A stretch of 28,636 nt of DNA from Planctomycetota bacterium. Its GTDB lineage: Bacteria > Planctomycetota > SZUA-567 > H5-PLA8 > CALKMO01. How positions within the stretch are numbered: the first letter of the stretch is position 1; every line of letters starts with the position of its first letter. The position numbers were made by a program, and so were the translations under genes. Positions 2,062 through 27,019 of this stretch are shown here, one piece after another. The stretch covers positions 2,460 to 31,095 of the forward strand of contig JAOACM010000001.1 of assembly GCA_026417845.1 (NCBI GenBank). Reading direction: 5' to 3'. The notes below the pieces were generated by a model, which made no database searches, had not been told where the DNA came from, and worked only from the letters and a program-made list of their open reading frames with translations.

Positions 2062-2931
2062 TCAGGCGCGTATCTCGGTCCCGATGCCCCTGTCCGTGAA
2101 TATCTCCAGCAGCATCGCGTGCGGCGTCAGGGCGTTGATTATGTGCGCCTTGCGAACGCCTCCCTTGAGCGCCGACAGGCACGCCTGCACCTTGGGTATC
2201 ATCCCTCCAGTAACGATCTTTTCACGGATCAGCCGCTCTGCCTCGCTCATGTCCATCGTCGAGAGAACGGAAGAAGGATCGCTCATATCTCTCATCACGC
2301 CGTCAACGTTCGAGAGGAACACGATCTTCTCGGCCCTGATCTCCGCGGCTACCTTCCACGCCACCGAATCGGCGTTGACGTTGTAAAGCCGTCCATCCGG
2401 GCCGCGGGCTATCGGAGCGACCACTGGTATGACGCTGCCCTCGGAGAGCCTGGCGCACAGTTCGGCGTCCACCGCCGTGATCTCCCCGACATAACCGAGG
2501 TCTATGTCGGGCCGGTCCTTCAGGCGGAGCTTCTCGCAGCGGAGGAAGTTGCTGCCGCGCCCATTCAGCGGTATCGCCTTGCCGTCGGCCTCCTCTATCG
2601 CCCGGCAGACCGCAAAGGATATCTCGTCTATCAGGACGCGGTGGGCTATTTCGATCGTCGCCTCGTCCGTCACCCTCCGCCCCTCGACGAAAACCGGTTT
2701 GATGCCGGCCTTCTCCATGGCGGCCGTTATCCTTGGCCCGCCGCCATGCACCAGCACCGGCCACATCCCCGCCTGTTCGAGAAAGACCACGTCGGTAATG
2801 ACGGACCTGAAGACGGCGGGGTCCTCCATCGCGCTCCCGCCCAGCTTTATGATCACGAACTTTCTGTCGAAGGCCTTCAGGTAGGGAAGCGCCTCTATCA
2901 GGACCGCGGCCTTCTCGCCGGCTGCGTTCAT
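2062..2931 (-). CDS. argB: N-acetylglutamate kinase
   Basis: VIIKLGGSAM, VHGGGPRI, GRRVTD, YNVNADSVA, TGGMIPKV and EIFTDRGIGT motifs; SD GAGGAG. Confidence 0.96.
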   Translation of the reverse strand: MNAAGEKAAVLIEALPYLKAFDRKFVIIKLGGSAMEDPAVFRSVITDVVFLEQAGMWPVLVHGGGPRITAAMEKAGIKPVFVEGRRVTDEATIEIAHRVLIDEISFAVCRAIEEADGKAIPLNGRGSNFLRCEKLRLKDRPDIDLGYVGEITAVDAELCARLSEGSVIPVVAPIARGPDGRLYNVNADSVAWKVAAEIRAEKIVFLSNVDGVMRDMSDPSSVLSTMDMSEAERLIREKIVTGGMIPKVQACLSALKGGVRKAHIINALTPHAMLLEIFTDRGIGTEIRA

Positions 2932-3036
2932 CTCCTCTTCTCCCCCCCCTCCATCCGGTTGCCCCGCGCGGCGCCGCCGTCCCGCCCGCCCGGCCCCTCG
3001 CGCGTTTCCCGCGACCGCGCGCCGGCGAGCAGCGCT

Positions 3037-4284
3037 TCAGGTATGGTACTCCGCGTTTATGGTTATGTAGCCGTGCGTCAGGTCGCACGTATACATTCGA
3101 AAGGCTCCGGGACCGCTGCCGGCCATGAGCAATATCGAAACCTCCTTGCGCGCCAGCAGGCGCCTCATCTCCTTCCTGTCGAATTCTACCGGTTCGCCGT
3201 TCCTGAAGACATCGCGCCCGCATATCTGCACCGTCGCGCGCCGCTCATCGAACCTGGCTCCCGACCGGCCCGCCGCCGCGATTATCCGCCCCCAGTTGGG
3301 GTCGCAGCCGGCCATCGCCGTCTTTACCAGAGGAGACTCGGCTATGGCGCGCGCGGCCTTTTCGGCGTCGCGTCTGGAAGCGGCCCCCCCCACGGCTACC
3401 GTGATCAGCTTCCCCGCGCCCTCGCCGTCCGCCGCAATCTGTCTGGCCAGCGAATCGCACACATCGAGGAGCGCGTCCCTGAACGATCCGTAGGCGGGCC
3501 CCCTTGGCGCAGAGATAAGGGGGATGCCGGCGAGGCCGCTTGCGAGTATCAGCGCCGTGTCGTTCGTGGATGTATCCCCGTCGACGGTCACGGCGTTGAA
3601 GGTATCCGCCGCGCCATCCCGGAGCGCCGAGCGGAGGGCGGCAGGCGAAATACGCGCGTCGGTGACGATGAAGGCCAGCATCGTCGCCATGCGCGGCGCT
3701 ATCATGCCCGATCCTTTGCACGCCCCAACTATCCGCACCGTCGCGCCGCTGCGTCCGGCGCGCCAGGAGGTCGCGGCGGTCTTCGGAACCAGGTCGGTCG
3801 TCATTATTGCGCGTTCGAAATCGCCGGTGCACTTCCTCTCGGCAATACAGCCGGCCAGAACCTCTATCCCGGGCAGAATCCTGTCCATTGGCAGGCGCCG
3901 GCCTATGACGCCGGTGGATGCGACCAGGACGCGGGCTGGCGGCACGCCCAGTCTCTCCCCGGCGCACCGGCACATCGCAAGCGCGTCAGCCATCCCACCA
4001 TCGCCCGTGCACGCGTTAGCGCAACCGGCATTGACTACCACCGCGCGCACCCGGCCGCCCCCAGCTTCGATATGTCTCCGACTGACCTTTACCGGCGCCG
4101 CACAAACGGCGTTGGTGGTGAAGACTCCGGCCGCGGCGGCATCCTGTTCGCAATACAGTATCGCCAGGTCGGGAGGTCTGGCTGGGGCGGTCTTAAGCCC
4201 GCAGTGCATCGCCGCGGTACGGAAACCGGGAACCTCGGAAAGCCGGAAGCAGACTCCCCCGCTTCCGCGCGTGTCGGATGCCAC
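3037..4284 (-). CDS. argJ: Ornithine acetyltransferase / N-acetylglutamate synthase (ArgJ)
   Basis: AGVFTTN, NAGCANACTG, KGSGMIAPRMA|TML autocleavage site, VDGDTSTNDT, ADGEGA, DPNWGRI and DLTHGYITINAEYHT; GTG start. Confidence 0.95.
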   Translation of the reverse strand: MASDTRGSGGVCFRLSEVPGFRTAAMHCGLKTAPARPPDLAILYCEQDAAAAGVFTTNAVCAAPVKVSRRHIEAGGGRVRAVVVNAGCANACTGDGGMADALAMCRCAGERLGVPPARVLVASTGVIGRRLPMDRILPGIEVLAGCIAERKCTGDFERAIMTTDLVPKTAATSWRAGRSGATVRIVGACKGSGMIAPRMATMLAFIVTDARISPAALRSALRDGAADTFNAVTVDGDTSTNDTALILASGLAGIPLISAPRGPAYGSFRDALLDVCDSLARQIAADGEGAGKLITVAVGGAASRRDAEKAARAIAESPLVKTAMAGCDPNWGRIIAAAGRSGARFDERRATVQICGRDVFRNGEPVEFDRKEMRRLLARKEVSILLMAGSGPGAFRMYTCDLTHGYITINAEYHT

Positions 4285-10815: not shown

Positions 10816-11868
10816 ATGCTGCTGGATGCCGTTCTGGGAGCCTTGTCCAAGGACCTTGGGATAGATCTTGGCACCGCAAATACGCTCGTGACGGCCAGGG
10901 GCGAGGGGATCATATTGATGGAGCCTTCCGTGGTCGCCGTCAAGAAGGGCACCAACCAGGTGCTGATGAACGGCGAGGCCGTTGGAGAGAAGGCCAAGCA
11001 GATGCTGGGCAAGACGCACGGCAGCATCCAAGCGATCCGCCCCATGAAGGACGGCGTGATAGCCGACTTCGAGATAACTGAGGCGATGCTGTCGTATTTC
11101 ATCCGCAAGGCGCACGGCAGGTCGCGGTTCATCCGCCCGAGGGTCATAATAGCCGTCCCGTCGGGAATAACGACGGTGGAGAAGCGGGCCGTGATCAACT
11201 CTGCGGAAAGGGCGGGGGCGCGGGATGTCAGGTTGATCGAGGAGCCGATGGCGGCGGCGCTCGGCGTCGGCCTGCCGGTCTCCGAACCCCGCGGTTCGAT
11301 GATCGTGGACATAGGCGGCGGCACCTGCGAGGTGGCCGTCATAAGCCTGCTGGGGATAGTGTGCAGCAAGAGCGTAAGGACGGCGGGAGACGAGTTCGAC
11401 CAGGCGATAATCGAGCACATGAAGCACAGGTACAACCTGCAGATCGGCGAGGCAACGGCCGAGCGGATCAAGATCGAGATAGGATCGGCCTACCCCATGG
11501 AGGAAGAGAAGACGCTGGAGGTCAAGGGCCGCGACACGCTGGCCGGGCTGCCCAGGTCGGTGGTGGTGTCGAGCGAGGAGATACGCGAGGCGTTGAGGCC
11601 CGCGGTGGATGAGATAATCGGGGCGATACGCGAGGTGCTTGAGAAGTGCCCGCCGGAGCTGGCCAGCGACCTGATAGATAACGGGATCACCATGGCCGGC
11701 GGCGGTTCGCTGCTGCGCGGCATAGACAAGCTGGTCGCCCGCGAGACCGGATTGCCGGTCAAGCGTGCGGACGATCCTCTTACCGCGGTCGCGCGCGGCA
11801 CCGGCGTGGTCCTCGAACAGATAGACGAACTCTGGCCGGTCCTGGCCAATGGCAGGGATCTTGAATGA
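10816..11868 (+). CDS. mreB: Rod-shape-determining actin-like protein MreB
   Basis: DLGIDLGTANT, EPSVVA, RPMKDGVIADF, IAVPSGITTVEKRAV, EEPMAAALG, VDIGGGT, AGDEFD, TAERIK and AGGGSLLRG. Confidence 0.97.
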   Translation: MLLDAVLGALSKDLGIDLGTANTLVTARGEGIILMEPSVVAVKKGTNQVLMNGEAVGEKAKQMLGKTHGSIQAIRPMKDGVIADFEITEAMLSYFIRKAHGRSRFIRPRVIIAVPSGITTVEKRAVINSAERAGARDVRLIEEPMAAALGVGLPVSEPRGSMIVDIGGGTCEVAVISLLGIVCSKSVRTAGDEFDQAIIEHMKHRYNLQIGEATAERIKIEIGSAYPMEEEKTLEVKGRDTLAGLPRSVVVSSEEIREALRPAVDEIIGAIREVLEKCPPELASDLIDNGITMAGGGSLLRGIDKLVARETGLPVKRADDPLTAVARGTGVVLEQIDELWPVLANGRDLE

Positions 11869-12222
11869 CATAGGAGCCGGCCTTCGGTGTCGCCGGGGAT
11901 GCCGGGGGCGCATAACCGCGGTCCGCTCCGTGCGCGCCGTGTCCGTTTGACCGTCCGACCGGAGATCCGCATTACTCCTTCGAAAAGAGCGTTCGCGAAC
12001 CTTCACGGGCGGGAGAACCGCGGCGATGTCGGGAGTCCCCCTCCAAGACCCGGTCCCCGGGCGCAGGATTCTCCTGCAAGATGTCCGCCTGACGGGACCG
12101 AACTTACCCCCTGGCTCGCAAACGCAGGATCATCCGCGATCTCCTTTGCCGGATACTCCCTTGGCACCTCGGCCCCGGATCAGGAGTGGAACGGCCTTTC
12201 CTGCGAAAAGCGAAAAACACCG

Positions 12223-12250
12223 TTGACGCGGGAGATAGCGGCAATAGAAT
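12223..12250 (+). promoter_or_regulatory. Sigma70-type promoter for the rplD-initiated ribosomal protein cluster
   Basis: TTGACG (12223-28), 16-nt spacer, TAGAAT (12245-50), with A-rich GAAAAGCGAAAAAC immediately upstream. Confidence 0.7.
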
Positions 12251-12339
12251 GTCTGTTAACCCTACGTGGGTCGGATGTACCCCTTAAGGGCTCGCAGGCG
12301 GAAGAAACCGCGACTGAAAGCCTTGGGGCCATTGACGAC

Positions 12340-12449
12340 GCGGGGAGTAGAAGGTTCCGGGCCGGGGGCGTTCCGGCCGCTGCTTCCTGGGGGGAGAAGC
12401 AGGTGGCCCGCCCGAAGGAACGGCCGCAGCCTTCTACTCCTCGTTGTTT
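12340..12449 (+). promoter_or_regulatory. Long hairpin in the rplD 5' leader (candidate ribosomal leader/attenuator)
   Basis: CGGGGAGTAGAAGG 12341-54 pairs with CCTTCTACTCCTCG 12430-43. Inner stems: CGTTCC/GGAACG, GGCCG/TGGCC, CTGCTTC/GAAGCAG. The 3' arm continues into TTGTTTG. Confidence 0.55.
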
Positions 12450-12484
12450 GTCGAAAGGGATTGGAACTCTGAAGGGCGGACGAG

Positions 12485-13111
12485 ATGATCGAGCTTCCCG
12501 TATATAACGAATCCGGGCAGGAGGTCGGGAAGGTGCAGCTCGACGAAAAGCTGCTCGGGGAGAAGATCCGCCGGCGGCTGATGCATCAGGCGGTGGTGCA
12601 GGCCGAGGCCGACCGGCGCCAGGGCACGCACTCGACCAAAACCAAGGGCGAACGGGCCGGGTCCGGGAAGAAGCCTTGGAGGCAGAAGCACACCGGCCGC
12701 GCGCGGGCCGGAATGAAAAGGTCGCCCCTGTGGGTCAAGGGCGGCAGGATATTCGGGCCCAAGCCGCGGGACTATACGCAGAGGATGCCCGCCCGTTCCC
12801 GCCGGGAGGCGTTGAAAAGCGCCCTGCTTTCCAAGTTCCTCGACAAGGAAGTCAAGGTGATAGATGCCCTGGCGTTCGACCGTCCGAAGACGGCACGGTT
12901 GAACAGGACGCTCAAGGCGCTCGGCATGGAAGGGACCACGCTGGTGGCCGTCCGCGAGGCGACCGAGGCGCTGGTCAAGAGCGCGAGGAACATGGCAACC
13001 TGTCGGCTCCTGAGGGCGCGCGACATGAACGCCTACGATGTCCTCAGACACAAGAACCTCCTGTTCACCAGGGATGTGATAGAAAACTTCCGGGAGGTAA
13101 TCCACGCATGA
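12485..13111 (+). CDS. rplD: 50S ribosomal protein L4
   Basis: RQGTHSTKTKGE, GKKPWRQKHTGRARAG, SPLWVKGGRIFGPKPRDY and NAYDVLRH. Confidence 0.98.
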   Translation: MIELPVYNESGQEVGKVQLDEKLLGEKIRRRLMHQAVVQAEADRRQGTHSTKTKGERAGSGKKPWRQKHTGRARAGMKRSPLWVKGGRIFGPKPRDYTQRMPARSRREALKSALLSKFLDKEVKVIDALAFDRPKTARLNRTLKALGMEGTTLVAVREATEALVKSARNMATCRLLRARDMNAYDVLRHKNLLFTRDVIENFREVIHA

Positions 13112-13404
13112 TCTCGGATCCTTACGCCGTCATAAGGCGTCCCATAATGACGGAGAAGAGCCATTCGATCCGGAAGGATCGGAACCAGTATACGTTCGAG
13201 ATACACAGGAGCGCGACGAAGGACGATGTGAAGCGCGCCGTGGAAAAGCTGTTCAACGTGAAGGTTGCGGCGGTGCGCACGATGAACATCAAGCCCAGGA
13301 CGAAGGTCTTCCGCAGGCTCAGGGGCAAACCGGGCAAGACGCGCGGATGGAAGAAGGCGATCATTACGCTGGCGCCGGGTTCCCCCGGCATAGACGTGTT
13401 GTAG
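13108..13404 (+). CDS. rplW: 50S ribosomal protein L23
   Basis: RPIMTEKS, YTFEI, AVEKLFNVKV and GWKKAIITL; ATG overlaps the rplD stop (ATGA). Confidence 0.96.
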   Translation: MISDPYAVIRRPIMTEKSHSIRKDRNQYTFEIHRSATKDDVKRAVEKLFNVKVAAVRTMNIKPRTKVFRRLRGKPGKTRGWKKAIITLAPGSPGIDVL

Positions 13405-13435
13405 CGGGCGGGGCGCGGGGCGATGCCGGCCGGAG

Positions 13436-14092
13436 ATGTCGGGCATGGAGGCAGGATCCGAGCGGACGGAGAAGGGCGGGGGGACGCTTCCGAAGGAGAA
13501 GGCCGGAGGACCGGGGAGGGGAGCTGAGACCGGGGCGGAGGGTACGGAGGGAGAGAAGGAAGGCGGGGAACGCGTCGGATCCAGGCTGCGGGGATGGGTG
13601 GACTTGGCGGTACGGGCCGGATTCTGGGCCCTGGTAATCTACATGTTCGTCTTCCAGGTCTCCGTCGTCTACGGCATCTCGATGCTCCCGAACTTCGACA
13701 CGAACGACCGGCTGGTGGTGGACAAGATATCCTGCCGGGTGGGAGTAATTAACAGGTTCGACGTGGTGGTTTTCGAGGCGGTAGTTTGCGAGAAGGGGCA
13801 GTACCGGAGGAAGGATTTCATCAAGCGCGTGATAGGGCTGCCCGGGGAAAGGGTGGAGATAAAAGGGGGATGCATACTGATAAACGGCGAGCCTCTGAAC
13901 GAGGAGTACCGGACGCTGGGCCGGTGCGAAGACGGAGTCTGGGAGGTCCCCGAGGGCCGGTACTTTGTGCTGGGAGACAACCGTTCGGTAAGCAACGACA
14001 GCCGGAGATACATAGGATTGGTGGCGGACTCGCAGATCAAGGGAAAGGTGAGGTTGAGGTTCTGGCCCTGGGAGAAACGGAGCTGGTTTTAA
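13436..14092 (+). CDS. lepB: Signal peptidase I (S26 family)
   Basis: One TM helix, then catalytic Ser box GISMLPN, DRLVVDK, catalytic Lys box DFIKRVIGLPGE, YFVLGDNRSVSNDSR and IKGKVRLRFWP. Confidence 0.94.
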   Translation: MSGMEAGSERTEKGGGTLPKEKAGGPGRGAETGAEGTEGEKEGGERVGSRLRGWVDLAVRAGFWALVIYMFVFQVSVVYGISMLPNFDTNDRLVVDKISCRVGVINRFDVVVFEAVVCEKGQYRRKDFIKRVIGLPGERVEIKGGCILINGEPLNEEYRTLGRCEDGVWEVPEGRYFVLGDNRSVSNDSRRYIGLVADSQIKGKVRLRFWPWEKRSWF

Positions 14093-14298
14093 AGCCTGTC
14101 CGAAAACTTCCGGCGCGTGGCTTATACGCCAGCGATCCCCACTGCCCGGAATGGGAGTTTTTGGGCTCTCAGGCGCGCCGTTCGGAGGCGTTCCGCATGG
14201 AGGGGGTCTCCGATGCGGGGCGCGGATCGCGATGGGCTGGACAAAAGCATGAGGGCGCGACCGGATTGCGCGCGAAGGGCTGGCGCGGAGATTGAGAT

Positions 14299-15138
14299 AT
14301 GGGCATCAGGGAATACAAGCCGACGACTCCAGGTCGCAGGGCGGGAAACGTCCTGGACTTCGCCGAGATAACCAAGACGGAGCCCGAGAAGGGGCTCATC
14401 GAGATGCTCCACCGCACCGGCGGACGCAATTGCCATGGGCGGATCACGTGCCGCGGCATGGGCGGAGGCCACAAGCGCTATTACAGGAAAATAGACTTCA
14501 AGCGCGACAAGGATGGCGTGAAGGGAAAGGTCGAGGCGATCGAGTATGATCCCTACCGGTCTGCCTTCATAGCGCTGATAAAATACGAGGATGGGGAGAA
14601 GCGGTATATCCTCTGCCCGCTCGGCCTGAAGGTGGGCGACACGGTCGAGTCCGGCGAGCATGTGGACCCGGAGACCGGCAACTGCATGCCGCTCCAGAAC
14701 ATCCCCTTGGGTCTCGTGGTCCACAACATCGAGATGGAACCCGGAGGCGGCGGGAAACTGTGCCGGGCTGCCGGGTGCGAGGCCAGACTGCTTGCCAAAG
14801 AGGGGCGATACGCCCACATAGCTCTGCCGTCCGGCGAGATGCGGATGGTTAACATACGCTGCCGCGCGACCATAGGACAGGTAGGCAACCTGGATCATCA
14901 GAACGTTTCGCTGGGGAAGGCCGGCAGGAGCCGCTGGCTGGGGATCCGGCCGATATGTCGCGGGATAGCCAGAAACCCGGTGGATCATCCGATGGGCGGC
15001 GGTTCGGCGAAGGGGAAGGGACATATACCTCAATCGCCGACTGGGGTGCTCGCCAAGGGGGGGAAGACGCGGAGCCCCAGGGCGGGATCGAACAAATTCA
15101 TCCTCAGGCGGCGGAAGGGGAAGGAGACAACGGCGTAA
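14299..15138 (+). CDS. rplB: 50S ribosomal protein L2
   Basis: [49 protein letters not shown] and [10 protein letters not shown]. Confidence 0.98.
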
Positions 15139-15204
15139 ACGGCTGTTTGCGCGACGCGTTCATATCGGGCGGCAGAGGAGTATGAAGGAGGAGAGAGAGG
15201 AAAC

Positions 15205-15510
15205 ATGAGCCGTTCTCTGAAGAAGGGACCATACGTTGATGCGAAGCTGATAAAGAAGGTGGAGAAGCTTCGCGCAACAGGGAGCCGCGAACCGGTAAAG
15301 ACCTGGGCCAGGGCGTGCACGGTGGTCCCCGATTTCGTAGGGTATACCTTCATGGTGCACAATGGGAGGACGTTTACGAAGGTGTTCGTGACGGAGGACA
15401 TGGTGGGACACAAGCTGGGCGAATTCAGTCCGACGAGGATATTCCGGGGGCATTCGGGCGTGAAGTCCGCACAGCAACCAGCGGAAGGCGGCGGGCAGAA
15501 AGGCAAATAG
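15205..15510 (+). CDS. rpsS: 30S ribosomal protein S19
   Basis: [22 protein letters not shown] and [15 protein letters not shown]. Confidence 0.98.
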
Positions 15511-23887: not shown

Positions 23888-24079
23888 ACCGCGAATCGCA
23901 GGTGCGGTATCAAGACCTTGACAGGTGCGGGGCGCGCTCGAAGGCGTCGGAGGGCCGGGTCGCCGGCGTGGTGCCTTGCGATATTCCCCCGGCAGGGCCG
24001 GGTGCGTGGTGCCTGCCGTCGCTCCGGCTGGCGGTCGTAAGGCGGATGGGTGCGCCCGCGTGGGCTTTGGGGGCCTGGC

Positions 24080-25429
24080 ATGTTTTCCGCCTTCTCGAAT
24101 ATCCTGAAGATTCCCGACTTGCGCAGAAAGGCGCTCTGGACGGTCGGCCTGCTTGCGCTTGCCCGCGTTGGCGTTTTCATCCCGATGCCGGGCATAGACG
24201 TCAGCGTGGTACAGGCTCAAATCGAGCAGACGCACGGTACGGCCTACGGCAGACTGCTCGGCATACTCGATATGTTCGCAGGCGGCGGTTTGCGGAACGC
24301 CTCCATATTCGCCCTCGGCATAATGCCCTACATCTCCGCGTCAATCATCTTCCAGTTGCTTACTGCCATCGTCCCGGCGCTCAACAAGATAGCCAAGGAA
24401 GGCGAATCCGGCCGCAGGAAGATCATCCAGTGGACGCGGTATTCGACGGTGCTCCTGTGCGTCGTTCAGGCCGTCATAATATGTTCCGGTCTGCAGGATC
24501 TGCGGCCCGGGGGACGGCCTATAGTCGTCGGTGGCGGCGGTCCGCTCTTTCTGGCCGGCGCGGCGATCACGCTCACGGCCGGCACGGTCTTCCTGATGTG
24601 GCTGGGCGAGCAGATAGACGAATTCGGACTCGGCAACGGCGGGTCGCTGATAATAATGGTAGGCATAGTCTCGCGCCTGCCGGTTGCGCTCTATGAGGTC
24701 GGCAAGCAGTTCGACCCGGCGATAGATTCCACCTCTCCGGCCGCCATAGGCCCCGGGCAGCTTCTCCTCCTGCTGGTCTGCTTCGTGGCGATGGTCGTCG
24801 CCGTGATAGTGGTGACGCAGGCGACCCGTCGGATTCCGATGCAGACGCCCAAGCGCACGCCCATCGGTTTCCGCCAGCAGCATTTTCTCCCGCTGAAGCT
24901 GAACGCCTCCGGCGTGATAGCGATAATCTTCGCTCAGGCCCTCATGGTGGTCTTCCCGGTGCTGGCGATGCTCCCATGGGATACATGGCGCGCCTTTCTC
25001 GCGTTCTTCATGCCGTGGGCGTTCCCCTACGTGACGATCTACCTCCTGCTGATCATATTCTTCTCGTACTTCTACACGGCGATACTCTTCGATCCGAAGG
25101 AGCATGCGGAAAACTTCAAGCAGTATGGGATATTCATACCCGGCATACGTCCCGGAGCTGACACGCGGGAGTATCTCGAGACGGTGCTGAACCGCATAAC
25201 GCTGGCCGGAGCGGTGTTCATAGCGATCATCGCGATAGTCCCGCAGATCATCCAGTATTCGCTCAACGTGAGTTACACGGTGTCCGACTTCTTCGGCGGG
25301 ACGGGACTGCTGATAGTGGTGGGCGTGGCACTGGACGTAGTGAACAGGATCGAGTCGCATCTGCTGATGCAGCACTACGAAGGGTTCCTGAAGGGCGGCG
25401 GACGCATCAGGGGCCGGAGAGGCATATGA
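24080..25429 (+). CDS. secY: Preprotein translocase subunit SecY
   Basis: SIFALGIMPYISASII, GRRKIIQWTRY, MWLGEQI..GLGNG.SLII, PLKLNASGVIAIIFA, IPGIRPG and GGTGLLIVVGV; about ten hydrophobic segments. Confidence 0.98.
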   Translation: MFSAFSNILKIPDLRRKALWTVGLLALARVGVFIPMPGIDVSVVQAQIEQTHGTAYGRLLGILDMFAGGGLRNASIFALGIMPYISASIIFQLLTAIVPALNKIAKEGESGRRKIIQWTRYSTVLLCVVQAVIICSGLQDLRPGGRPIVVGGGGPLFLAGAAITLTAGTVFLMWLGEQIDEFGLGNGGSLIIMVGIVSRLPVALYEVGKQFDPAIDSTSPAAIGPGQLLLLLVCFVAMVVAVIVVTQATRRIPMQTPKRTPIGFRQQHFLPLKLNASGVIAIIFAQALMVVFPVLAMLPWDTWRAFLAFFMPWAFPYVTIYLLLIIFFSYFYTAILFDPKEHAENFKQYGIFIPGIRPGADTREYLETVLNRITLAGAVFIAIIAIVPQIIQYSLNVSYTVSDFFGGTGLLIVVGVALDVVNRIESHLLMQHYEGFLKGGGRIRGRRGI

Positions 25430-26070
25430 GGATCGTGTTTCTGGGGCCGCCCGGCGCCGGCAAGGGGACGCAGGCGAAGATGCTGGCGCGGCGCAGGAAC
25501 CTCGCGCACCTTTCGACCGGAGACATGCTTCGGGCGGCGGTGGCCGGCAAGACCGTCGTCGGCCTCGTGGCGCAGGGGTATATGGAGCGCGGGGCGCTGG
25601 TTCCCGACGATGTGGTTCTGGGCGTGATAGAAGAGCATCTCGCGGACGGTAAGGCCGCGGGCGGTTTCGTGCTTGATGGATTCCCCAGAACCCTTGCCCA
25701 GGCGACGCGGCTGGACGAGATGCTGGTATCCCGCGGCGCCCCCATAGATCGCGTTCTGCTCATAGATTGTCCGATGGAGGAGGTCGTACGAAGGCTTTCG
25801 GGGCGCAGGAGCTGCCGGAAGTGCGGAGCGGTATATCATATCGAGACTATGCCTTCGAAAAAGGATGGGGTCTGCGACCGGTGCGGGGGCGAACTGTACG
25901 TTCGCGACGACGACCGGGAGGATGTCATAAAGAGACGTTTCGAGGCTTATAACCGGAGCACGCTCCCGTTGATCGAGTATTACGAGAAAAAAGGCATCCT
26001 GATCAGGATAGACGGAACCGCCCCCCCGGATGCTGTAGCGACCGCAGTAGAAAAGGCCGTGGCCGGTTGA
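25426..26070 (+). CDS. adk: Adenylate kinase (Zn-LID type)
   Basis: GPPGAGKGTQA, STGDMLR, LVPDDV, LDGFPRT, LID CRKC...CDRC and RDDDRE; ATGA overlap with secY. Confidence 0.97.
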   Translation: MRIVFLGPPGAGKGTQAKMLARRRNLAHLSTGDMLRAAVAGKTVVGLVAQGYMERGALVPDDVVLGVIEEHLADGKAAGGFVLDGFPRTLAQATRLDEMLVSRGAPIDRVLLIDCPMEEVVRRLSGRRSCRKCGAVYHIETMPSKKDGVCDRCGGELYVRDDDREDVIKRRFEAYNRSTLPLIEYYEKKGILIRIDGTAPPDAVATAVEKAVAG

Positions 26071-26085
26071 CCCCGCACGTGCTTC

Positions 26086-26114
26086 CCGCGGCTGCCTGCA
26101 GCCGGGTTTCTTTT
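26086..26114 (+). terminator. Weak intrinsic-terminator-like hairpin between adk and map
   Basis: CGGCTG-CCTG-CAGCCG followed by GGTTTCTTTT. Confidence 0.35.
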
Positions 26115-26236
26115 GCGGGAGGATCGTACCGCCGGCAGCTGCTCCCGGTTTTTCCGTTCGGCCTTTTGTGATATTGCGGGGGCAGCTGCTATTTTGCCGT
26201 AAGCCGGCGGGGTTGGAAGGAGCGAAGGGGTTCCGC

Positions 26237-27019
26237 TTGGCGGGGTGGATACTCAAATCCGACAGGCAGATTGAGCTGATCCGCGAGGCTGGGCGGATAG
26301 TGGCCGAATGTCTGAAGCTGGCCGGGGATATGTGCGTTCCCGGCATCACGACGCGGGCGATAGACCAGGCCGTCGAGAGGCATATCCTGAAGCGCGCGGG
26401 CCGGCCGGCGTTCAAGGGATACTGCATGAGCGGCAAGGCGCCGTTTCCGGCCAGCATCTGCGCCTCCGCGAACGACATCGTCGTGCACGGCATACCGAAC
26501 GACGAGCCGCTGCGCGAAGGCGACATACTGTCCGTGGACGTGGGGGTGCTGCGCGAAGGCGTATATGGCGACGCGGCGTGGACTTTCCCGGTTGGCAGGG
26601 TGCCTCCGGAGGCGCGGCGGCTGCTCGATGCCGGCGAAGAGGCATTGAAGGCCGGCGTAGCGGCGGTCAGACCCGGCGGTTTCCTTCACGAAATTTCCGA
26701 GGCCATTCAGAGTACGGCCGAGTCGCTGGGGTATTCGGTGGTTCGCGAGTTCGTCGGGCACGGGATCGGTTTGAACCTCCATGAGGAGCCTCAGGTGCCC
26801 AACTATGTGAGCATACAGGATCGCCTGCCGGGTCGCAGGTTCACGCTGAAGCCCGGGCTGGTCCTGGCCATCGAGCCGATGCTCAACGCCGGCGGCGGCG
26901 AGGTGGCATCCAGACCTTCGGAATGGCCGGTAAGGACGAAGGACGGCTCGCTGTCGGTGCACTTCGAACATACCGTGGCCGTGTTGAAGGACAGGGCGGA
27001 GATAATGAGTCTTCCCTGA
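26237..27019 (+). CDS. map: Methionine aminopeptidase type I
   Basis: Metal-ligand motifs SVDVG, GDAAWT, GHGIG..HEEP, AIEPM and HFEHTV. Start placed at in-frame TTG 26237 with an AAGGGG SD. Confidence 0.95.
   Translation: MAGWILKSDRQIELIREAGRIVAECLKLAGDMCVPGITTRAIDQAVERHILKRAGRPAFKGYCMSGKAPFPASICASANDIVVHGIPNDEPLREGDILSVDVGVLREGVYGDAAWTFPVGRVPPEARRLLDAGEEALKAGVAAVRPGGFLHEISEAIQSTAESLGYSVVREFVGHGIGLNLHEEPQVPNYVSIQDRLPGRRFTLKPGLVLAIEPMLNAGGGEVASRPSEWPVRTKDGSLSVHFEHTVAVLKDRAEIMSLP

Follow-up and report, generated by a model that had tools for sequence, protein, structure and literature searches.

A gene for type I signal peptidase in the ribosomal-protein block of an order of Planctomycetota, between rplW and rplB

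In a Planctomycetota bacterium (GTDB lineage SZUA-567; H5-PLA8; CALKMO01), the gene lepB, encoding a type I signal peptidase (SPase I), is flanked by rplW and rplB, two genes for ribosomal proteins. The DNA analysed, in the following called the window, is a stretch of 28,636 nucleotides (nt) from contig JAOACM010000001.1 of GenBank assembly GCA_026417845.1 (positions 2,460 to 31,095, forward strand), in which lepB occupies positions 13436-14092 on the + strand. The order rplD-rplW-rplB-rpsS is among the most stable bacterial gene orders known, and the insertion of lepB in the S10 core is an undescribed break in it, extending the known theme of secY and map in the spc operon. A description of lepB between rplW and rplB was not found in the open literature (subscription journals being outside its coverage), and NCBI records annotate the gene simply as 'signal peptidase I'. 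From gene order and spacing we consider it rather probable that lepB is a fixed resident of the ribosomal block, most likely read through together with the ribosomal-protein genes.

Identity of the embedded signal peptidase

The open reading frame (ORF) at 13436-14092, 218 amino acids (aa) in length, matched the Pfam family PF10502 (Peptidase_S26) at 4e-40 and 137.9 bits (cut-off 22.9) over profile positions 2-168 of 168, and the NCBIfam equivalog TIGR02227 'signal peptidase I' at 133.7 bits (cut-off 47). The catalytic Ser82 (codon 13679-13681) lies in the motif GISMLP (S-M-x-P, box B) and the general-base Lys130 (codon 13823-13825) in FIKRVIGLPGE (box D, K-R-[VI]-[IV]-G). Box E, reading GDNRSVSNDSR (pattern G-D-N-x-x-x-S-x-D-S-R), comprises residues 180-190 (13973-14005). 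In an alignment, the residues S82, K130, R131, G180, D181, R183, S186, D188, S189 and R190 were invariant across 18 orthologs. The full-length match, the Ser, the Lys and box E place the protein in the type I signal peptidase family (MEROPS S26A), and, judged by its sequence, the window encodes at 13436-14092 a type I signal peptidase with an intact active site. An earlier reading of the DNA letters, made without database searches and in the following called the sequence-only reading, had described an intact lepB with SMLP Ser, IKRV Lys and a GDN box, which is borne out by Pfam, NCBIfam and our direct reading of the motifs.

An AlphaFold model, computed with the 18 orthologs as input, is disordered at residues 1-44, forms a helix at residues 46-73 with a predicted local distance difference test (pLDDT) value of about 90, and continues with a beta-rich domain. 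The model thereby predicts a membrane anchor followed by the beta-rich catalytic domain of the S26 family. The anchor helix (13571-13654) is supported by conserved alignment columns as well, the orthologs having the motif ..W..L.VRAGFWAL.IY.F.FQVS in common, and the assignment of 13655-14089 to the catalytic domain is based on the invariant active-site residues and on the codon substitution rates of the core. All of the top 26 fold matches to the model in the PDB were SPase I or SipA, among them SpsB, EF3073, SipA and LepB. The closest solved structure by sequence was the SPase I of Bacillus anthracis (4NV4, 7.5e-24).

The true start of lepB is probably the second ATG at 13445, because a GGAG lies 9 nt ahead of it, the public gene call comprises 215 aa and the N-termini of the orthologs begin with M-E/D-D/E. 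The ratio of nonsynonymous to synonymous substitution rates (dN/dS) was 0.03-0.29 for the catalytic core in congeneric pairs; by this measure the embedded lepB is under purifying selection. The gene has a GC content of 0.61 and a third-position value (GC3) of 0.79, both similar to those of the neighbouring genes. Because of this similarity the embedded gene is, by its composition, not recently foreign, and any transfer would be old. The distance in codon usage between lepB and ribosomal or non-ribosomal genes was dominated by the small size of the gene and is not used here.

Distribution and origin within the phylum

In the order to which the window belongs (families f1-f3, window included), the S26 gene was found directly upstream of rplB in 19 of 19 genomes, but in none of the 19 genomes from the rest of the class (families f4, f5 and f7), where the gap between rplW and rplB is 4-77 bp. 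This agrees with the stable, lineage-specific insertion proposed in the sequence-only reading. The order's orthologs are 36-54% identical to the protein of the window, and rplW is seen upstream of them in 16 of 18 relatives. One of the two remaining cases lies at a contig edge. In the other one, genome G013 (L008, G013:C105:11889-15437), an ORF for a carbon-nitrogen hydrolase (2641-3549, - strand) lies upstream of lepB; there, rplD-rplW has been separated off, while lepB, rplB and rpsS are still together. The only genome of the window's own genus (G001) is uninformative, its contig beginning inside rplB. One of the records bearing the ortholog is DASPJR010000067.1 (Planctomycetota bacterium SMAG_U12015).

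The sister family f6 is represented by a single genome (G022), in which the evidence is partial: the contig begins inside the C-terminus of the S26 protein, and this remnant at the contig edge, IIGDNLEASRDSRRFG, ends just before rplB. In a tree of five ribosomal proteins f6 is the sister of the window's order. Since f6 carries S26 at the same site, the insertion is, on these sequences, older than the split of the order and f6.

Beyond this class, the embedded gene was present in all three genomes of family f13, which belongs to another class, and in the sole species of a third class (G078, 1/1). Family and class labels used here are GTDB-based kinship labels, on which the statement that three classes are concerned rests. 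The single genome of family f70 (G134), from the same class as f13, lacks the gene, as do about 95 other Planctomycetota with gaps of at most 120 bp. Altogether, rplW and rplB are adjacent in 115 genomes across about 70 families, with a median gap of 20 bp in the last 63 examined. A short LepB was detected at E <=1e-15 in 56 of 300 genomes of the phylum sample, and it was embedded only in the order, in G078 and in the f13 genome G208. Among the matches listed for other phyla, mostly Bacillota but also Cyanobacteria, Actinomycetota and others, none of 79 SPase I loci had L23 or L2 within 3 kb. The non-embedded short LepBs elsewhere in the phylum have variable neighbours (an HDOD protein, a short-chain dehydrogenase/reductase, an S-adenosylhomocysteine hydrolase, M1 or M24 peptidases). 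The idea of a lineage marker therefore holds in part: the arrangement is stable in the order and its sister family, but it is not unique to them, two other lineages of Planctomycetota sharing it. Even so, the arrangement is at minimum a rare and clean genomic change that marks the order and the sister family and can be of use in the placement of metagenome-assembled genomes (MAGs).

In G134 the junction of rplW and rplB contains an unrelated ORF of 188 aa (L177:918-1484), the N-terminus of which resembles a signal peptide or a membrane segment. We considered it as a degraded S26 gene and rejected this, the phmmer E-value being above 2 and no Pfam match being obtained.

The gene order of the window is supported by independent data, as the sequence-only reading had asked for. 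In the Logan contigs of sequencing run X1, record 1 spans 12900-13520 and record 4 spans 13522-14556. A bubble with two alleles at 13521 connects these records, and in this way a separate assembly bridges both lepB junctions. Run X1 is a hot springs metagenome from 2014, the only public run found to contain the stretch, and it may be the source sample of the window itself. The order recurs in other samples, too: the nearest protein relatives (72-74% identity) stem from three of them (ENA ERZ6864144, JGI 3300060601 and JGI 3300043540), their contigs reading L4-L23-S26-(L2), S26-L2, and S26 followed by an unannotated cut ORF. The bubble is a G/A polymorphism within the N-terminal tail of lepB; its branches have depths of 3.8 and 3.3, which points to a mixture of strains in the sample. 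At the 3' end of rplD, within 12952-13039, another eight differences were observed.

The genome of the window contains at least three S26 genes, namely the embedded short form, a long form and a divergent form of 160 aa on contig C302. The long form is represented by two fragments at contig edges (L002, G000:C107:3-1112, - strand; L004, G000:C110, ORF 1471-1794, - strand), which match the profile at positions 3-97 and 113-168, respectively. The two stretches of the profile complement each other, and an assembly gap probably divides a single long-form LepB here. The fragment on C107 has a long insertion, and the N-terminus of the long form also has an R/G/D-rich tail of low complexity. The order's relatives likewise possess long forms, and in addition a class-wide second short form (f5, f6 and f2 clade, 100% support). 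A further S26 paralog is specific for f2 (L314-L317, L320; genomes G010, G002, G004, G006 and G005); in it the nucleophile motif S-M-x-P reads H-M-P/S-P, and like SipA it may be a homologue of signal peptidases that lacks catalytic activity. Since at least two further S26 paralogs accompany the embedded gene in the window's genome, the total SPase I dosage is, by gene content, not set by the embedded copy alone.

In the LepB trees the order's embedded copies form one clade, with 82-87 in the Shimodaira-Hasegawa-like approximate likelihood ratio test (SH-aLRT). The copy of G078 groups with this clade, as do short LepBs from further planctomycete classes (f49, f9, f69, f48 and f11); the class-wide second paralog and the sequences of Bacillota and Cyanobacteria are separate from it. 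Based on this grouping the embedded gene is, phylogenetically, the canonical planctomycete short LepB. The copy of G078 moreover has the membrane motif KEW..LL.KA and FQ(I/V)SVV in common with those of the order. One LepB tree was computed without the rows L148, L146 and L098 and without two thirds of the Bacillota rows; row L003 in the tree is a wrong-frame match (E 0.53) and is to be disregarded.

The canonical short subfamily was not found at E <=1e-15 in f4, f5 and f7. It is possible that the order's ancestor moved an ancestral copy into the operon and that its relatives in the class lost theirs; alternatively, the ancestor might have received the gene from a different lineage of planctomycetes. 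In approximately unbiased (AU) tests a single clade of all embedded copies was not rejected for the LepB tree (p 0.545), nor was a single clade of the insert-bearing genomes for the tree of five ribosomal proteins (762 columns, p 0.43). Because neither test rejects a single clade, the trees are compatible both with one origin, accompanied by losses or transfer, and with three captures.

Probable expression together with the ribosomal-protein genes

The reading we favour is that an intact, membrane-anchored short SPase I of Gram-positive-like type has become fixed between rplW and rplB in the order and its sister family. The gene would be transcribed from a promoter in front of rplD, within a long polycistron reaching from rplD to map. 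In this way the cell would produce one of its at least three S26 paralogs constitutively and at the pace of ribosome synthesis, as is the case for secY and map of the spc operon. Co-transcription of lepB with the ribosomal-protein genes is likely from the arrangement of the genes; any selective benefit of a coupling to ribosome synthesis is putative.

lepB is on the same strand as its neighbours and is separated from rplW, ending at 13404, by the 31 bp (13405-13435, with the GGAG at 13432-13435) that had already been noticed in the sequence-only reading. That reading did not mention the gap of 206 bp downstream (14093-14298), reaching to the start of rplB at 14299. In seven relatives lepB and rplB are only 4, 10, 17, 18, 27, 33 and 34 bp apart, so that a terminator and a promoter of their own would not fit in between. 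The spacer between rplW and lepB is mostly 16-40 bp in the relatives and about 90-260 bp in a few with uncertain start codons. A consensus scan of 11800-15300 detected no promoter-like site and no terminator-like site of the + strand in either lepB spacer of the window; the sole promoter-like site in this region is a putative sigma-70-like match on the + strand (TTGACG-16-TAGAAT, 12223-12250) upstream of rplD. As the genes share one strand, spacers of 4-34 bp occur and the scan showed no such signals in the window's spacers, read-through would be the most economical reading.

The 206-bp spacer of the window is the longest observed; elsewhere the values are 4-176 bp, those of the nearest relatives being 70 and 92 bp. 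It begins with a palindromic dispersed repeat of about 85 nt (14091-14175, + strand), which directly follows the lepB stop codon and forms a long imperfect hairpin. Within three mismatches the repeat occurs in 8 copies in the MAG of 4.6 Mb and in none in the reversed control; the other copies are located on contigs C523, C558, C12, C236, C369, C570 and C815 of genome G000 (L238-L244). An alignment of the copies gave AGAGCCTGTCCGAAAAC.TCCGGCGC and GGGAAGTTTTTGGGCAGGCTCT as the consensus ends. Extra Logan contigs pile up on 14093-14130. The repeat resembles a repetitive extragenic palindromic (REP) sequence or a miniature inverted-repeat transposable element (MITE), and it looks like a recent arrival in this spacer, because the spacers of the nearest relatives are only 70 and 92 bp long. 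Its hairpin has a folding energy of -35 kcal/mol (z -1.4). The spacer as a whole folded no better than its shuffled versions (z -0.57) and gave no match to Rfam.

Several points weigh against read-through. The promoter scan used a crude sigma-70 consensus, which may not fit the promoters of Planctomycetota, and the hairpin repeat after lepB could terminate or process the RNA, or else stabilise it. Spacers of 90-176 bp in some relatives leave room for internal signals. The further S26 paralogs are present both in the window's genome and in relatives, and any of the S26 copies could be the housekeeping enzyme. Public runs were searched with a 1.8-kb stretch and with lepB alone, and no RNA run matched. 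The unrelated ORF of G134, finally, suggests that the junction may simply tolerate insertions.

This last observation leads to the strongest of the alternatives, which we regard as possible but clearly less probable: lepB might have come to a permissive junction by a rare rearrangement or transfer and been kept there only as a useful or essential gene that is not readily excised, with no selected benefit from coupling. A frozen accident of this kind would fit the signal-peptide ORF at the same junction in G134, the spacer lengths between 4 and 206 bp, which are not conserved, the entry of a mobile palindromic repeat into the window's spacer, and the unrelated and variable contexts of short LepBs elsewhere in the phylum. 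It is harder to reconcile with the arrival of the same family, out of thousands of genes and sites, at the same junction in three lineages labelled as different classes. Furthermore, there are zero losses among the 19 genomes of the order plus the sister family, and in G013 lepB remained with rplB where rplD-rplW moved off.

Expression of lepB uncoupled from the ribosomal proteins, by a promoter of its own or by a terminator or processing site behind it, seems improbable to us. The 206-bp spacer starting with the hairpin-forming repeat, spacers of 79-176 bp in relatives, the gaps of up to about 90-260 bp between rplW and lepB in a few of them (start codons uncertain) and a consensus scan which may miss planctomycete promoters would all be in line with it. 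On the other hand, seven relatives have only 4-34 bp between lepB and rplB, and between rplW and lepB there are mostly 16-40 bp, so that separate signals would find no place; a terminator-like site on the + strand was detected in neither spacer of the window, and rplB would need its own promoter in every genome.

Of about the same low probability is a repeated independent capture at the rplW/rplB junction, selected for joint production with L23, whereby the N-terminal tail of the order's copies may contact the ribosome or the translocon. L23 lies where the tunnel of the ribosome opens and where the signal recognition particle (SRP), trigger factor and SecYEG dock. If this were true, secY, map and lepB would constitute a ribosome-linked expression module for export and processing in a phylum with very large secretomes. 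The tail comprises residues 1-45 (13436-13570) and is G/E/K-rich, of low complexity and predicted to be disordered and cytoplasmic, with pLDDT values of less than 50 at residues 10-44. An open, charged, low-complexity tail of 30-90 aa with many in-frame indels is present in each of the 18 orthologs of the order; for the tail a dN/dS of 0.2-0.66 was obtained in congeneric pairs, and only a weak DGR(L/T) motif recurs in the tails of some genera. Such a tail is absent from the embedded copies of f13, which have a plain short basic N-terminus, and of G078; because of this, the tail is, by comparison of the sequences, not a property of the operon position. Hence the N-tail of about 45 aa described in the sequence-only reading is real and predicted to be disordered, but it is hypervariable and not tied to the place of the gene in the operon. 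Long N-terminal extensions on LepB are common across Planctomycetota; a non-embedded short-type LepB of 449 aa in G042 (family f9, L106:631-1980), for example, has an extension of about 280 aa before the S26 domain.

An assembly or binning artefact, i.e. a chimeric contig fusing an unrelated lepB to ribosomal-protein genes, might be suspected from the fragmented source MAG (881 contigs, 80.5% completeness) but is refuted by the separate assembly of run X1 bridging both junctions, by the same order in 18 other genomes, including the near-closed G002 (8 contigs) and G010 (6 contigs), and by the three metagenome contigs from other samples.

Setting of the block and comparison with known systems

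The ribosomal-protein block of the window is preceded by mreB (10816-11868, + strand, identified by Pfam) and a gap of 616 bp (11869-12484), which stand in place of rpsJ-rplC. Its first gene is rplD (L4; 12485-13111, + strand, Pfam Ribosomal_L4 1.5e-60), followed by rplW (L23; 13108-13404, + strand, Pfam Ribosomal_L23 1.9e-29). Downstream of lepB the + strand carries rplB (L2; 14299-15138, Pfam Ribosomal_L2_N and Ribosomal_L2_C) and rpsS (S19; 15205-15510, Pfam Ribosomal_S19), and after rpsS, in the order customary for S10/spc, the genes rplV, rpsC, rplP, rpmC, rpsQ, rplN and rplX, which were named by ORF order only. The same-strand block ends with secY-adk-map (24050-27019, + strand, Pfam SecY, ADK and Peptidase_M24). 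The gene rplC (L3) is encoded elsewhere in the genome, on contig C41 (L245, G000:C41:3917-7168), and an Rfam search of 11800-15300 in E-value mode gave no match, hence no leader family. The canonical head rpsJ-rplC-rplD with an L4-regulated leader is thus not present in this block. Because mreB lies upstream, L3 is located on C41 and no Rfam leader was detected, the unit is an rplD-initiated block rather than a classical S10 operon. The 'S10 operon' of the sequence-only reading is correct insofar as lepB lies between rplW and rplB, but rpsJ-rplC is missing and the block begins at rplD. Within the block, rplE (L5; 19047-20150) encodes a protein of 367 aa with the Pfam L5 domains on residues 210-364 only, preceded by an N-terminal extension of about 200 aa.

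A secretion enzyme was kept inside a ribosomal operon through an order-level radiation, and the same solution is found in two other planctomycete lineages. The nearest parallel is the spc operon with its non-ribosomal passengers secY, adk, map and infA. There, too, a gene for export or processing lies on the same strand in a ribosomal polycistron, is conserved over a deep clade and is presumed to be co-expressed, and secY and lepB serve successive steps of the same Sec pathway. The spc passengers are present in Escherichia coli, Bacillus subtilis and most bacteria, and co-transcription of spc is established in model organisms. The gene of the window differs from secY, adk and map, which are near-universal and have a distal position in spc, in that it lies in the S10 core and occurs only in one order with its sister family and in two other small lineages of Planctomycetota. 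If the coupling is functional, the logic of secY and map, by which export capacity goes with ribosome number, would extend to signal-peptide cleavage, and the order would be a natural system for asking why non-ribosomal genes join ribosomal operons.

As an enzyme, the embedded LepB resembles the SPases of Gram-positive bacteria (4NV4; SpsB of Staphylococcus aureus, 4WVG-4WVJ; EF3073 of Enterococcus faecalis, 4ME8), with which it shares the S26A fold, the Ser/Lys dyad and the boxes as well as a catalytic domain of about 170 aa and a single N-terminal membrane helix. SpsB was the top structural match to the model, with 32-34% identity. Unlike these enzymes, the protein of the window has a disordered acidic/Gly-rich cytoplasmic tail of 45 aa. 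LepB of E. coli (1B12) belongs to the same family and has the same catalytic mechanism, but it spans the membrane with two helices and possesses a large additional beta domain; by sequence, no more than its C-terminal box could be aligned (1.8e-8). The long-form paralog in the window's genome (C107/C110) is of this E. coli kind. The locus lepA-lepB-rnc-era of E. coli is the canonical context of the gene, lepB being co-transcribed there with lepA, the gene of a translation factor.

A further parallel is the 'invasion-separation' described for the str-S10-spc-alpha cluster, in which genes invade the regions between the operons and separation follows (Brandis 2021, PMC8046335). In the accessible parts of these papers duplication, transposon-directed recombination and horizontal transfer are proposed as routes of entry (PMC8046335; Brandis et al. 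2019, PMC6735719), and transposable elements are stated to integrate 'within the operon cluster', too (PMC8046335). Our case is alike in that foreign genes enter a conserved ribosomal cluster. It differs from the process as presented in those parts in that a single gene entered within the S10 operon, and its flanks were kept together through an order-level radiation.

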